Assembly: GCA_038145765.1 (NCBI GenBank)
Contig: JAYQQG010000006.1
Span: forward strand, 1-54,792
From: Verrucomicrobiales bacterium
GTDB taxonomy: Bacteria > Verrucomicrobiota > Verrucomicrobiia > Limisphaerales > UBA1100
Length of the DNA: 54,792 nt
Reading direction: 5' to 3'
Made by a program: the position numbers and the translations under genes. The notes below the pieces were generated by a model. It had not been told where the DNA came from. It saw nothing but the letters and a program-made list of their open reading frames with translations, and made no database searches. Below are positions 6,889 to 30,453 of this stretch, piece by piece (the first letter of the stretch is position 1; every line of letters starts with the position of its first letter).

Positions 6889-7979
6889 TGGAAACCGCCA
6901 CCCCCCAAAAAACGCGCGTCCTGTGTGGCATGAGTGGTGGAGTGGATTCCTCCGCAACGGCAGCGTTGTTGTTGGATCAGGGCTATGAGGTGGTCGGCGT
7001 TACGCTCAAACTCTGGCCGCAGGACTGCGTTTCCCGCGCCGAAGACAAATGCTGCGGACCGCAGGCCGTCATGGATGCCCGCTCCGTTTGCCACAACCTC
7101 GGCATCCGCTATTACCTCATCGACGAGGCGGAGGATTTTCAGAAGCACGTCATCCAGTATTTTGCCGACGAATACAAAGCCGGCCGCACGCCCAACCCCT
7201 GTGTGATGTGCAATGAGCACCTCAAGTTCGGCCGACTCATCGAGCGTGCCGATCAACTCGGCGCCGATAAGATCGCCACCGGCCATTTTGCCCGCGTTGA
7301 GCAAAACTCCGAAACCGGCCGCTATCACCTCCTACGTGGACGAGACGAGCGAAAGGATCAGACCTATTTCCTGTTTTCACTACGCCAGGATCAACTGTCG
7401 CGCGCGATGTTTCCGCTCGGTGAAAAAACCAAGGATGACACCCGCGACGTCGCCCGCCATTGTAATCTAAAAACCGCCGACAAGGAGGAAAGCATGGAAA
7501 TCTGCTTCGTCCCCGACAACGACTACGGCGGCTTCCTGCAAAAAGCCGGCCTCGCCGAAAAGCATCAGGGCGAAATCGTCGACCTCAACGGTCGCGTGCT
7601 CGGTCACCATGACGGCATCGAGTTTTACACCATCGGCCAACGCAAAGGCCTCGGCATCAGCGCGCCAAACCCACTCTACGTTCTCGAACTCAACGCCGAG
7701 GAAAACCGCGTCGTCGTCGGTCCTGTGGAAAACCTTGAGCAGGACACCTTCACCGTGGAGCGGTGTAACTGGATTCCTTTCGCCGATCTTACTGAGCCCA
7801 TCGAGGCCACCACACGCATTCGCTACAACCACCCCGGCACCCCGGCCACCATCGAGCCCGGCGAAAACGGCACCGCCACCGTCCGCCTCCACATCCCCCA
7901 ACGCGCCATCGCCCCCGGCCAAGCCTGTGTGTTTTATCAGGAAGACCTCGTCCTCGGCGGCGGCTGGATTGCACGGTAG
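6888..7979 (+). CDS. mnmA: tRNA-specific 2-thiouridylase
   Basis: SGGVDS PP-loop, TPNPCVMCN, ATGHFAR, KDQTYFL, EICF, TIGQRKG, PGQACV. Confidence 0.97.
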   Translation: METATPQKTRVLCGMSGGVDSSATAALLLDQGYEVVGVTLKLWPQDCVSRAEDKCCGPQAVMDARSVCHNLGIRYYLIDEAEDFQKHVIQYFADEYKAGRTPNPCVMCNEHLKFGRLIERADQLGADKIATGHFARVEQNSETGRYHLLRGRDERKDQTYFLFSLRQDQLSRAMFPLGEKTKDDTRDVARHCNLKTADKEESMEICFVPDNDYGGFLQKAGLAEKHQGEIVDLNGRVLGHHDGIEFYTIGQRKGLGISAPNPLYVLELNAEENRVVVGPVENLEQDTFTVERCNWIPFADLTEPIEATTRIRYNHPGTPATIEPGENGTATVRLHIPQRAIAPGQACVFYQEDLVLGGGWIAR

Positions 7980-10680: not shown

Positions 10681-12018
10681 CTATGGGGTGGCGATCTTCG
10701 CGCGTGTAACAGGATCTTTAGGCCGCAAATCAGCAAGGATAGTGTCGAGCAGATTAAGTTGGGCGATGGCGCGATTGCGTAAGGCCGCCTGAGCGGTAGG
10801 TTTGGTGCGGATTGTTTTATGGATTTTTCCGGAACGAACGCCGAGATAGGTTTCCAAAGTGGTGCGGTAATCCTGAATAAGACGGGCGGTCTCGGGAGTG
10901 GAATTGACCTGAAGAAAGGTGAGGCGCTGAAGGATGGGGCCCAGTTTAAGGGCGCGTTCCCTGGGGGATGGATCAGTTTGGAGATAGGCCTGTAGCGGGA
11001 GGCGTTTCTTGGATGGCTCTGTGTTAGAGGATTCGTTTGCCGGCTCAATTTCCACGTGGAGGCAGTCGGTCAAATGCGAAAGGACAACTTCCGGCCTCCA
11101 GCGGTTGAAGGCATCGCGGCTGCGGAATTGAAGCTGCGCGACCGACCACCATTGCTCGATTTGTAACATGCTTTGATGGCCGAATGCGGCGCCGAAGGCA
11201 TGAGTATTATTCTTGTGTTTGGGAAGTTCTCGGAGAAACAGCTGCAGACGCTCCGGCCCCTTGGGCAATCGGAGCAGTTTATAAACGAGCAAATGAGCGT
11301 GGGCGCGATAGGCGGCATCATCGGGCGACAACTTAATCCGAGCCGGGGGGAGAGTGAGGTTCAGATAGGAAATGGGCTTGGATTGCTGGAGGAGTTCACG
11401 ACTGGCGTGGAGTGGATCCTGTGGGTGGTGGAAATTCACCCCGCCAATGGCTTGGGGCGCAAACGGAGTGAAAAGGACAGGGCCCTTGGCTTGAAGGATG
11501 AGCTCGGTGCTGCCGGGGGTTAGCCACAATGGAAGGGAGGGATCCGTTTGAGAGTAGCGGCCGGCAAATTCCGTAAGCAACAAATTGAGGATGAGCTCCG
11601 TGAGCGCACGGCCATGGATGAGGTGTGGAACTGAGGCCCGGTAATCCCATGAACCGGTCGCATTCGGGATACGCCCAAAACGAGGACGATCCCCTAGTTT
11701 GCCGAGGATGATTTGCATATGGATCTGTCCCTGCCATCGGGTGGTGATTTGGTAATGCTGCACCCATTGATTGCGAATGGATTCTGCGAATTGCGCCAGC
11801 CCGGCCGGGTGCAGCTGAATCCGGTCGGGGATGGCCTTGACCTTATTGGCGGAGGGAACAAACGGCGCATCTACGAGAGAGCTGATGACAAATTGCCGCG
11901 ATCGGCTCGTGAGGGTTTGCCCGGGGCGCAGTCGTTGCGCGTGGCCCCAGTCCCAGCCGCACAGCAACATCAACACCGCCAAACAGCGTGCGAAGCGGCT
12001 ATTGAGGCAGAGGGTCAT
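10681..12018 (-). CDS. Exported hypothetical protein, possibly a degenerate zincin/peptidase-MA-like fold
   Basis: N-terminal signal peptide; PLWLxxG motif but no HExxH; ATGA overlap with the upstream gene. Confidence 0.7.
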   Translation of the reverse strand: MTLCLNSRFARCLAVLMLLCGWDWGHAQRLRPGQTLTSRSRQFVISSLVDAPFVPSANKVKAIPDRIQLHPAGLAQFAESIRNQWVQHYQITTRWQGQIHMQIILGKLGDRPRFGRIPNATGSWDYRASVPHLIHGRALTELILNLLLTEFAGRYSQTDPSLPLWLTPGSTELILQAKGPVLFTPFAPQAIGGVNFHHPQDPLHASRELLQQSKPISYLNLTLPPARIKLSPDDAAYRAHAHLLVYKLLRLPKGPERLQLFLRELPKHKNNTHAFGAAFGHQSMLQIEQWWSVAQLQFRSRDAFNRWRPEVVLSHLTDCLHVEIEPANESSNTEPSKKRLPLQAYLQTDPSPRERALKLGPILQRLTFLQVNSTPETARLIQDYRTTLETYLGVRSGKIHKTIRTKPTAQAALRNRAIAQLNLLDTILADLRPKDPVTRAKIATP

Positions 12019-12335
12019 GACTTTTTAGGTTTGCTGTTTGAACTCTTGGGGCTGCTCTTTTTGGAGTCGGAGTTTTTGGTATCCGTTTTTTTCTCGGTGG
12101 CCTTTTTGGCCGCTTCGCTGGCTTTTTTCTCACCGCTCTTGTAATTCTCGCTGCGGTAATCCGTTTCATAAAAGCCGCCGCCTTTGAAAATAATACCACC
12201 GCCAGTGCCCAGCAAGCGGGTGACCTTACCTTTGCAACCTTCTTCAGTGCATCGCGTCAGTTTTGGTGCCTTGATAGATTGAAAATGCTCAAAAATTGCG
12301 CCGCATTGGGCACACTCGTACTCATAAGTTGGCAT
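12015..12335 (-). CDS. FmdB-family zinc-ribbon protein
   Basis: MPTYEYECAQCG...C.x4.C...FKGGGFYETDY plus Lys/Ser-rich tail. Confidence 0.92.
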   Translation of the reverse strand: MPTYEYECAQCGAIFEHFQSIKAPKLTRCTEEGCKGKVTRLLGTGGGIIFKGGGFYETDYRSENYKSGEKKASEAAKKATEKKTDTKNSDSKKSSPKSSNSKPKKS

Positions 12336-12474
12336 GAACGAAAATCCCCTCTCTCTTGAGCTTTTTTCTAGGTGAAAACTGTGTGCGGGTCAAGGCGTTG
12401 CTGGCTTGCAATTCACAGGTTATTCACATAGGTTGTGGGTGAACCCACATTCGCCTTCGGGCGAACGATACACT

Positions 12475-28128: not shown

Positions 28129-28743
28129 ATGAACGCAGCTTTGCCATTTGTGATGAGTATCTTTCTGTTCGCGGTAGCCCTGCAAGCGCAACCGACTCCG
28201 CCTCCGGCCGTGCCCAAGGAATCTCCCGCGCAGATCGCGGCCCGCCAAGCATTCGAGGCCGCCAAAACTGCCGCGGAATCCGGGGATGCCGTGAAACTGC
28301 GTGAACTGGCTGACCTGTATTATGCGGGCAAAGGCGTGACCAAGAATGTGGCTGAATCTTATAAACAATACTTGGCATCGGCTGAGAAGGGGGATGTGTT
28401 GTCGGAGGCGACGGTGGGTTGGATGCTTCGCAACGGCCAAGGTGTGGCGCGTGATTACAAGAAGTGTCTGGAATGGTACACCAAGGCTGCTGAAAAGGGG
28501 CATGTGGAATCGCAGTTAGGTTTGGCGGAACTTTACTATAACTCCGTTGGGCTAGAGGAACGGGACTACGCTACCGCCTACAAGTGGTACCTTATCGCCT
28601 CCGGTTTAGGCAGCAAGGAAGCCAAGGCTTTCATTCCGCGGATGGAGCAGGCCGTGCTAAAAGAGCCGAATGTGAATGCCGAGCAAAAGGCGACGGCTGA
28701 AAAGGCGGCCAATGATTGGCTGGCGGCCTACGGCAAAAAGTAA
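28129..28743 (+). CDS. Sel1-repeat exported protein
   Basis: Signal peptide; LY..G.GV..N/DY..A..WY..AAEKG repeats. Confidence 0.92.
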   Translation: MNAALPFVMSIFLFAVALQAQPTPPPAVPKESPAQIAARQAFEAAKTAAESGDAVKLRELADLYYAGKGVTKNVAESYKQYLASAEKGDVLSEATVGWMLRNGQGVARDYKKCLEWYTKAAEKGHVESQLGLAELYYNSVGLEERDYATAYKWYLIASGLGSKEAKAFIPRMEQAVLKEPNVNAEQKATAEKAANDWLAAYGKK

Positions 28744-28786
28744 GAATAACCGAGCGCGGCCTCGTTTCGCAGGGTCGTTCCACTGC

Positions 28787-28862
28787 ATATTCACATCTGT
28801 GAATATCCTGTGAAAACAGGCGAATAACTTACTCTATTCACATCCGGATAGTGTGTTACCTT
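28787..28862 (+). promoter_or_regulatory. Operator-like palindrome and putative promoter upstream of the RNA candidate
   Basis: ATATTCACA-TC-TGTGAATAT perfect palindrome (28787-28806); CTATTCACA (28834-28842); TG-n-TACCTT extended -10 (28854-28862). Confidence 0.45.
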
Positions 28863-28868
28863 TCTCTT

Positions 28869-29096
28869 GTTGGCAGCACCTTCGGGAGCCGCTGACGGGG
28901 TCGGATGACTCCGAGACAGGAACCTTCGGGCGAATGTTTCAATCCGGAAGCTTCTTCGGAAGCATCTGGATGAGCCGCTGATCCAAAGCCTCCACCCGAG
29001 GCATCCTGAAGAACAGTTCGCGAGAGCAGTTCGGACGGAATTTGACCGTCTGGGAAGTAGTCTTCGGACCACCGCCCGGGCGGTCTTTTTTGTTTT
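28869..29096 (+). ncRNA. Unassigned highly structured small RNA candidate
   Basis: Chain of at least 7 hairpins, four with cUUCGg loops and one GCGA (GNRA); ends in a long stem plus T6; no plausible CDS on this strand. Confidence 0.7.
29044..29096 (+). terminator. Intrinsic terminator ending the RNA candidate
   Basis: GACCGTCTGGG(29044-54) pairs with CCCGGGCGGTC(29075-85), followed by TTTTTTGTTTT. Confidence 0.75.
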
Positions 29097-29182
29097 CTCC
29101 ACGTTGAATTAAACTTTCAAAGTTTTCCTTGGCTGATGTTTTTCATGCGTTAGGCTTTATAAAACACTGGGTTAGTTTTATT

Positions 29183-29380
29183 TTGGAAATCTATATTGGA
29201 AAAGATGGTCAGTTTTTGGGTCCGTACCGAGAGGCTGGAATTCAAGTGCTACTGGATGAAAGCATCTATAATGGGGATGAACTGGTTAGACGAGAGGGGC
29301 AGGAAGCATAGTTGAATATAAAAGAGTTTCTGGAAGGAGCTGATACGCCTGCACCGGAGCCTGAAGAGCTCTCAGTTTAA
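29183..29380 (+). pseudogene. GYF_2 (DUF4339)-domain gene remnant
   Basis: EIYIGKDGQFLGPY...I..LL......DELV.REGQEA* with TAG (29309-11) where the conserved Trp is expected; the frame continues to TAA at 29380. Confidence 0.65.
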
Positions 29381-29387
29381 CCATTCG

Positions 29388-30017
29388 ATGAAGAAGCTCA
29401 TGCAACAGATAAAAAAGATTAAGAATCTGATTTTTGAAGGCCATGCTGATAAGGCGAGGGAACTTGTTCAGTCTCTGAATAACCCACGCATCTATGAAGG
29501 GTTACTGGAGGATAACCCGGATATTGATGATGGATATGTTGGAACGCCGGAATATCTCCTCCGAAATGGAGATTTTTTCCTTAAGCTGTTGGCTCATATT
29601 CCGCAGGAAGCAAACTTAGACTCTAAGTTTAAGTCAGTTACCAAACTGCAACTCAGTTACACCCGAATCAGTGATGTTACACCCTTAAAAGGTTTCACGC
29701 AGTTAACTTGGCTGGATCTCTCCGGTAACCAGATCGGTGATGTTACACCCTTAAAAGATCTCACGCAGTTAACGGAGCTGGATCTCGGTGGTAACCCGAT
29801 CAATGATGTTACACCCTTATAAGATCTCACGCAGTTAACGGAGCTGAATCTCGGTGGCAACCAGATCAGTGATGTTACACCCTTAAAAGATCTCACGCAG
29901 TTAACGTTACTGGATCTCAGAGGCAACCAGATCAGTGAATCTGACAAAGAAAATCTACAAGAGATTCTTCACGAATGCTGCATATTGCCGAGAAAGCCTT
30001 GGTGGAAATTTTGGTAA
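29388..30017 (+). pseudogene. Internalin-like LRR gene interrupted by a nonsense codon
   Basis: 22-aa LRR units (NQISDVTPLKDLTQLTELDL); TAA at 29820-22 where sister repeats have AAA; the frame continues to ...RKPWWKFW* at 30017. Confidence 0.85.
29667..29938 (+). repeat. Four 66-bp coding tandem repeats (LRR units)
   Basis: ATC.GTGATGTTACACCCTTA.AAG.T.TCACGCAGTTAAC... recurs at 29667, 29733, 29799 and 29865, partially at 29931. Confidence 0.92.
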
Positions 30018-30077
30018 ACTAGCTCATTGACAACCTCTCACCTTGCTCAAGAGAGTAGTGTGGCTTTGATTGCCTAC

Positions 30078-30281
30078 ATGAAGCAGTTCATGCTCTTCCC
30101 CTTCATGACCTCCGCTTTCGAGTTCACGGGAAAAGTTGTTGTAGTAGCTAATGGCGATACCTAGGTGATATTATATGAGGGTGCGAAACAGTATAAGGTG
30201 AGGCTGCAACATATTGACTGCCCTGAAACGCGCCAGCCATTTGCAACCAGATCAGTGCGTCTGGCACAGAGGGTTTACTGA
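30078..30281 (+). pseudogene. Thermonuclease (SNase-family) 5' fragment
   Basis: FTGKVVVVANGDT*V...QYKVRLQHIDCPE.RQPF; internal TAG at 30162; truncated after QPF. Confidence 0.75.
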
Positions 30282-30453
30282 GGCGGGCCAGAGTGTGAAA
30301 TCAACACTTAACCATTCCTTAAATCCACACCCACCTCTGCCTTCGCCGGCCATGGCGCGGGCGTAGGGTGTGTGCACTGATAGCACTTAACTGTCGGAAA
30401 CCTTTCCAATGGTGTTAGCGCATCCTGTTAAATTTTTTTTGTTGGGAAAGCCC

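Follow-up and report, generated by a model that had tools for sequence, protein, structure and literature searches.

A probable sibling small RNA gene of an uncatalogued structured RNA family in marine Verrucomicrobiota

The window analysed here is a stretch of 54,792 bases from a genome (G000) that is assembled in 221 contigs and is 91.5% complete. Positions 28869-29096 of its forward strand read as a run of hairpins, just as the initial annotation of this DNA had drawn them, with four UUCG caps, a single GCGA loop and, by word count, ten GGA words; four CTTCGG words fall within the element (at 28880, 28924, 28954 and 29062), of 23 forward-strand copies across the window. A Sel1-repeat gene (28129-28743) precedes the element on the same strand, and a homologous gene of ~200 aa is present ~100-125 nt upstream in 14 of 15 loci, the fifteenth being without upstream sequence. 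Downstream there is, as had been noted, no intact gene: what follows the terminator is an AT-rich stretch of ~1.2-1.3 kb (29100-30400), in which 300-base segments between ~29000 and 30200 have a GC content of 41-45%, compared with ~55% around it, and which carries a GYF-like gene fragment (29129-29311) and a leucine-rich-repeat fragment (29388-29822). A TIM-barrel gene is located ~1.36 kb from the RNA end in the window; six relatives have a xylose-isomerase-like TIM-barrel gene, in convergent orientation, ~190 bases past the P4 core and ~100 past the RNA 3' end, and the AT-rich stretch is absent from relatives, whose convergent gene comes soon after the RNA. The stretch looks like inserted or decayed foreign DNA. 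Since the next gene is convergent in the six g1-type loci that have downstream sequence, the RNA is not a leader, and a riboswitch or other cis-acting leader was rejected because there is no regulated same-strand gene downstream, only gene fragments in the window and the convergent gene in these six relatives.

The whole RNA probably comprises 28869-29091 on the forward strand, ~223 nt, and its 3' end most likely lies at the T run 29086-29091 rather than at 29096. The terminator stem of the initial annotation was recovered by a terminator scan as a terminator-like hairpin (29071-29084) followed by CTTTTTTG; among 33 distinct orthologues there is hardly any variation in the run of six T/U residues, and the helix is conserved as well, which is the form of intrinsic terminator sought in a stand-alone sRNA gene. 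The fold consists of hairpin P1, a three-way junction closed by P2, the invariant hairpin P4, hairpin P5 and the terminator helix P6 (Table 1).

Table 1. Features of the RNA gene and of the region upstream of it, in window coordinates
Feature	Position	Strand	Remarks
GTGAA in direct repeat, two copies spaced by one helical turn, TGTGAATATCCTGTGAAAA	28798-28816	+	Candidate transcription-factor site, ~55-70 bases before proposed RNA start
GAATAACTT, conserved box just 5' of the -35 position	28822-28830	+	AATAACT-like box aligned across the family
Extended -10-like element TGTTACCTT (TGnTAnnTT)	28854-28862	+	6-7 bases before first paired base
P1 hairpin, GUUGGCAGCACC-UUCG-GGAGCCGCUGAC	28869-28896	+	Helices 1 and 2: 6/8 pairs compensatory; 93.0% and 88.7% of cells paired
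P2 5' strand GGGGUCG; partner 28978-28984, alternative local partner 28907-28912	28897-28903	+	92.6% paired, 5/7 compensatory
P2b 5' strand CUC; partner GAG 28972-28974	28909-28911	+	Helix 4: 2/3 compensatory, 93.5% paired
P3a hairpin, UUCG cap and internal loop	28913-28940	+	Helix 5: 8/10 pairs compensatory
P3b hairpin, AUCCGGA.GCUUC-UUCG-GAAGC.UCUGGAU	28942-28971	+	Helices 6 and 7: 9/11 pairs compensatory
3' strands of P2b (GAG, 28972-28974) and P2 (CUGAUCC, 28978-28984), closing the three-way junction	28972-28984	+	
P4 hairpin, GCCUC-CACCC-GAGGC; loop invariant, most conserved element	28988-29002	+	
P5 hairpin; UCC...GGA base, GAAC.GUUC-GCGA-GAGC.GUUC tip, GNRA loop 29020-29023	29004-29039	+	Helices 10 and 11: 7/11 compensatory
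Linker AUUU	29040-29043	+	
P6 long terminator helix, ACCGUCUGGG..GUAGUC-UUCG-GACCAC..CCCGGGCGGU (29044-29084), then U run 29086-29091	29044-29091	+	

The claim that selection acts at the level of the RNA is borne out both by folding energy and by covariation. The forward strand of 28860-29100 folds with a minimum free energy of -101.7 kcal/mol, compared with -85.2 +/- 4.7 for dinucleotide shuffles (z -3.50; none of 200 shuffles equal), whereas the reverse-strand fold has a z of only -1.25, with 16 of 200 shuffles equally good. RNAalifold predicts 72 pairs from 13 sequences, 35 of them with compensatory changes. When 17 distinct orthologues are placed on a covariance model of the element (R1), 93.3% of pair cells hold standard pairs, as opposed to 82.5% with shuffled partners and 34-53% with partners slid by 1-3 columns; both sides have changed in 38 of the 72 pairs, and none of 500 shuffles reaches any of the five measures used. 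With 33 distinct orthologues, metagenome copies included, the paired cells make up 94.0% and compensatory changes are seen in 42 of 72 pairs, again unmatched in 500 shuffles, in an alignment that is fitted to the covariance model and hence favours its structure; the MAFFT-based result with 13 sequences is free of that bias. Four of 23 metagenome pattern matches (L117, L123, L127 and L135) fit neither R1 nor the second model described below (R2), and were left out as chance matches. Together, the paired nature of the substitutions and the presence of a fold excess on the forward strand only indicate a functional RNA rather than chance hairpins or a reverse-strand protein.

Compensatory change is fast in the 5' half of the RNA, and the 3' half is nearly invariant. 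All 33 distinct orthologues have the same P4 sequence, UCCACCCGAGGCA; 16 of them were added by two pattern scans that fixed part of this very sequence, the unbiased set being the 17 rows found by BLAST or the covariance model. The P4 stem does not vary at all in the window's class, so that pairing there yields no covariation signal, and the equivalent stem of the paralogues does covary. P6 (helix 12) has 17 pairs, five of them compensatory, with 97.9% of cells paired, and two of its pairs are invariant wobbles (UG in all 33 distinct orthologues). The length of the P5 tip differs between genera, and one-base indels separate orthologues. Six of the seven helices originally drawn stand, through compensatory changes or, for GCCUC-CACCC-GAGGC, through invariance; the remaining one, CGGGGTC-GGAT-GACTCCG, has a stronger long-range rival. 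For the local hairpin GGGGUC-GGAU-GACUCC, 85.3% of cells can pair and three of six pairs are compensatory, whereas P2 and P2b combined are paired in 92.9% with six of ten pairs compensatory; the two arrangements are mutually exclusive and both are conserved, the long-range pairing being the better supported.

Comparison with catalogued RNAs leaves the element, as had been suggested, an unassigned structured RNA. None of the 4227 models of Rfam 15 matches anywhere in the window at its gathering score, and permissive settings applied to 28700-29250 return nine matches with E values of 0.82-9.2, all far below the cut-offs; the best of those inside the element is isrD, which covers the terminator only (17.3 bits, gathering score 37). 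Eleven paralogue loci gave tRNA matches only. The view that the element is not a tRNA, tmRNA, RNase P RNA, SRP RNA or 6S RNA is likewise upheld, in that ARAGORN detects neither tRNA nor tmRNA in the window, and the SRP RNA, tmRNA and RNase P RNA of G000 sit on other contigs than the element. A 6S RNA-like match is located at G000:C75:2359-2528 on the reverse strand, scoring 43.5 bits against the RF00013 cut-off of 46.4, and is probably the 6S RNA of this organism. With these loci elsewhere in G000, a missing or diverged housekeeping RNA was ruled out; 6S RNA was also rejected on the grounds that the consensus fold is multibranched, with no rod and central bubble, and a tmRNA-like reading of CCUCCACC on the grounds that ARAGORN is negative, the G-U identity pair is absent and the motif lies in a loop. 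A full-text literature search returned, among the papers listed, no description of regulatory RNAs in this lineage or of such an RNA. We are confident that the element is a real RNA gene of an undescribed family; it is the family that is new, whereas stand-alone sRNA genes that have siblings are already known in bacteria.

BLAST finds a single copy of the element in G000 and matches in 14 of 41 related genomes, G000 included: these are 11 of the other 14 genomes in its genus and two of three from a second genus, with none among 16 genomes drawn from 16 other families of the order. A pattern scan with one genome per species identified 16 loci, all labelled Verrucomicrobiota, Verrucomicrobiales, Limisphaerales or Pedosphaera, and R1 matches 27 of the 31 genomes of the taxonomic family. 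The initial annotation had stated that a significant Rfam match would speak against its proposal, as would the absence of homologues, covariation and expression; none of these results was obtained, with homologues in 27 of 31 genomes and RNA-library contigs from four studies. R1 scores orthologues at 147-245 bits; many genomes also contain full-length matches that score lower (19-75 bits). The latter represent paralogues, 214-398 nt in length, whose helices follow the order seen in the orthologues and which have terminators of their own and the same upstream boxes. A second covariance model, R2, built from 16 paralogues, has 76 matches in 28 of the 31 genomes of the taxonomic family, with one to seven per genome. 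By genus, and with G000 set aside, R2 matches 14 of 14 genomes in g1, nine of nine in g5, four of four in g4, none of two in g2 and none of one in g3, the three g2 and g3 genomes searched having an estimated completeness of 90-95%. Under stricter filters, R2 has no match in a sample of 148 genomes that represent other families in the order, and none in a sample of 150 other genomes of the phylum.

G000 has three family members: the window copy and two further ones (loci L093 and L095), namely one on contig C32 (6520-6773, forward strand), which scores 171.9 bits with R2, and one on C95 (~7539-7927, forward strand), which scores 125.3 bits with R2, or 169.3 bits over 389 nt once its 5' part is included. 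The C95 copy, at ~389 nt, has extra 5' hairpins, and it is in such peripheral hairpins that members of the family vary, the core being kept. The contexts of the paralogues are unrelated (ceramidase-like, sulfatase, aminoacyl-tRNA-synthetase-like and tRNA genes), and clustering of flanking ORFs across paralogues gives no common protein-gene neighbour, only spurious ORFs that overlap the RNAs themselves. Of the C32 and C95 members, one lies between ceramidase-like and sulfatase genes and the other before a class II aminoacyl-tRNA-synthetase-like gene; elsewhere, sibling RNA genes adjoin tRNA genes (L063 1311-1382, L065 1-51, and upstream of L078, L080 and L094). Head-to-tail or overlapping pairs of family matches occur at G020:C146:9570-10002, G008:C1:41167-41564, G007:C7:30752-31149 and G024:C110:11408-11822, which suggests tandem duplicated copies in these four relatives. 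In at least seven assemblies (L004, L006, L007, L029, L116, L118 and L120) a contig ends at or inside the RNA gene; such breaks may stem from the 3' domain repeated among siblings or from a variable downstream site.

The paralogues have a further candidate interaction, in which the P4 loop, UACCAA, would pair with UUGGUA just before P6. This loop-to-3' pseudoknot is plausible but weakly tested: 94.6% of cells are paired, one position occurs as AU 27 times, GU seven times and GC three times, and three pairs are invariant. It was rejected for the window's own class, in which the loop is CACCC(G), the partner site is AAUUUGA and there is no conserved complement to the loop. The window RNA is probably a locally syntenic but diverged member, here termed class A, of this uncatalogued family of sibling sRNAs.

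The region upstream of the RNA has a layout that recurs across the family. Of 53 distinct upstream regions in the family, 50 contain the AATAACT-like box; an extended -10-like element (custom pattern TGnTAnnnT) is found 4-10 bases before the RNA in 41 of 53 distinct members, and at least two GTGAA-like words lie further upstream in 39 of 53. These upstream repeats recur with an 11-base period, with up to four in a row at the C32 copy, and their helical phasing suggests a single regulator bound on one face of the helix, in an arrangement that we liken to OmpR/PhoB-type sites. Since a generic sigma-70 consensus scan gave no promoter-like sites, the promoter reading is founded on conservation within the family. 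The pattern GTGAA-N6-GTGAA occurs 35 times in the genome, upstream regions of protein genes included, and these occurrences rule it out as a specific marker of the family when taken by itself. This conserved promoter layout, together with the three paralogues in the genome, the larger family to which they belong and the long-range rival helix, goes beyond what the initial annotation had described.

Part of the interval 28700-29200 is present in 20 RNA runs (14 studies across all 21 rows listed). Four RNA runs from four studies each provide one contig on the locus, of 151-259 nt and with 90-100% likeness, spanning 28783-29010, 28902-29052, 28831-29089 and 28912-29066 and jointly covering 28783-29089. 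As contigs rather than reads these carry no information on ends, strand or level, and carry-over of DNA into the libraries is possible; the flanks are without RNA-library contigs, an absence of cover that is not evidence in either direction. Two of the contigs start upstream of the proposed RNA start, at 28783 and 28831, which would also fit read-through from the Sel1-repeat gene or DNA in the library.

Families of sibling sRNAs with a dedicated activator include Qrr1-5 with LuxO, RsmX/Y/Z with GacA, GlmY/GlmZ with GlrR, and OmrA/OmrB with OmpR. The family described here is like these in that a genome has several copies that have diverged from one another, each a separate gene ending in an intrinsic terminator, with common upstream boxes at fixed spacing; in a manner reminiscent of GlmY and GlmZ, it is precisely in the most conserved loop that class A departs from its siblings. 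Unlike them, it has no sequence or covariance-model similarity to Qrr, Rsm, GlmY/GlmZ or Omr RNAs; the window RNA is much more structured, with six or seven covarying helices and a possible pseudoknot in its siblings; and the upstream repeats are direct GTGAA words with an 11-base period rather than the sites of those systems. Taken as a whole, the locus is probably best explained as a separate sRNA gene, class A of a sibling family that was found only in one taxonomic family of marine Verrucomicrobiota. It would be a structured RNA gene of ~223 nt with its own activator-type promoter and intrinsic terminator, and its product would act in trans as one of a set of regulatory siblings. The fast-evolving, UUCG-capped 5' domain would serve as a structural scaffold, and the nearly invariant 3' domain (the P4 loop CACCC, AUCCUGAAG, GGAAUUUG and lower P6) as the working surface for a target RNA or protein, while one DNA-binding regulator would read the phased GTGAA repeats and switch transcription of all siblings, in which case a single signalling pathway would have the family as its RNA output.

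The regulatory mechanism proposed here, with action in trans, is offered more tentatively than the gene assignment, and we consider it possible rather than likely. Hfq gave no match in G000 (about 91% complete), so any pairing with targets would proceed without the usual chaperone. Words complementary to the P4 loop have 20-193 matches per word genome-wide, with no visible link to start codons among the matches listed, and the six or seven covarying helices exceed the structure that most pairing sRNAs need, which weighs against a pairing sRNA.

Because the conserved structure exceeds the usual need of a pairing sRNA, the main rival is a structured protein-binding, scaffold or even catalytic RNA that presents a three-dimensional surface to a protein, in the manner of 6S, Ms1 and Y-RNA-type ribonucleoproteins; we regard this as somewhat unlikely. 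The helices kept by covariation, the three-way junction and the two invariant U-G pairs of P6 would all suit such a role, as would a family in which length varies between 214 and 398 nt at the peripheral hairpins around a constant core, and the four UUCG caps suggest architecture more than contact surface. The UACCAA/UUGGUA pseudoknot, with its one compensatory type of pair, would also be in keeping with a scaffold, although the window's own class lacks the sequences that would form it. Like 6S RNA and Ms1, the RNA is abundantly structured, falls in a similar size range and has a stand-alone gene, but it does not form a long rod interrupted by a central bubble, and G000 has the separate 6S-like locus on C75. 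Moreover, no protein gene is a conserved neighbour across the paralogues, and the narrow distribution and variable copy number of the family are unusual for a housekeeping ribonucleoprotein.

An unlikely alternative is that the family consists of RNA conformational switches, with class A a decoy or antagonist of its siblings or else a sensor acting in trans. The window RNA and its siblings would then keep two exclusive pairings of one strand, the local hairpin and the long-range P2, and a short terminator hairpin within P6 would compete with the long helix. Lacking the loop-to-3' pseudoknot of its siblings, class A could act as a decoy, as GlmY does toward GlmZ, or, as a sensor, could have its fold set by a ligand or protein that would thereby determine exposure of the invariant 3' domain. 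If true, the switch or decoy reading would give marine Verrucomicrobiota a new regulatory RNA system of their own.

That the RNA is instead part of the 3' UTR of the upstream Sel1-repeat gene, or is processed from its transcript, seems to us very unlikely. The proximity of that gene, in the same orientation, at 14 of 15 loci would fit, as would the reach of the RNA-library contigs upstream to 28783 and 28831 and the finding, by terminator scan, of no strong terminator between the gene and the RNA; but contigs of this kind cannot show transcript ends, and the paralogues keep the upstream boxes at equal spacing in unrelated gene contexts.

A sponge that sequesters CsrA/RsmA, as CsrB and RsmY do, is highly improbable, in agreement with the doubts expressed about it initially. 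The element does resemble CsrB, RsmY and RsmZ (Rfam clan CL00106) in being multi-hairpin, in containing ten GGA words in 228 nt and in belonging to a genome that encodes CsrA (PF02599, 82.2 bits, C50:18700-18855, reverse strand), and the genetics of RsmX/Y/Z are akin to those of a multi-copy family with a common upstream activator-like site. However, the capped loops are UUCG or GCGA and contain no GGA, and most of the GGA words lie in helices or are not conserved: the single-stranded GGAAUUUG becomes GGGCUUG in the second genus, and the paralogues have only one invariant GGA, in AAGGAUUGG, where it overlaps the pseudoknot strand. On the element, the RsmY model reaches 11.4 bits against a gathering score of 57.

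Finally, it is hardly credible that there is no functional RNA here but only chance hairpins or a small reverse-strand protein (ORF 28791-29102, 103 aa), for although a reverse-strand frame is open over the whole element in several orthologues, the window's copy has two such frames open simultaneously, the open frames differ by lineage and the reading frame is not conserved, other lineages have stops in the corresponding frames (in all three in orthologue L052), orthologues differ by one-base indels with substitutions falling in compensatory pairs, and the reverse strand folds no better than its shuffles.

Read as a sibling sRNA family, the ~76 matches in 28 genomes, with their defined fold and promoter layout, constitute a ready candidate for Rfam, in a phylum whose members are abundant degraders of polysaccharides in the sea. 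Two questions have also become testable, namely which regulator reads the GTGAA repeats and what the ligand of the invariant 3' domain is in a genome where Hfq was not found. The regulator of the sRNA genes may act on protein genes as well, judging from the distribution of its putative site. Within the window, the double repeat GTGAATAACCTGTGAA also occurs at 12412-12427 on the reverse strand, ~75 bases upstream of a 106-aa ORF (12015-12335, reverse strand) whose product, starting MPTYEYECAQCG, we take to resemble an FmdB-type zinc-ribbon protein.
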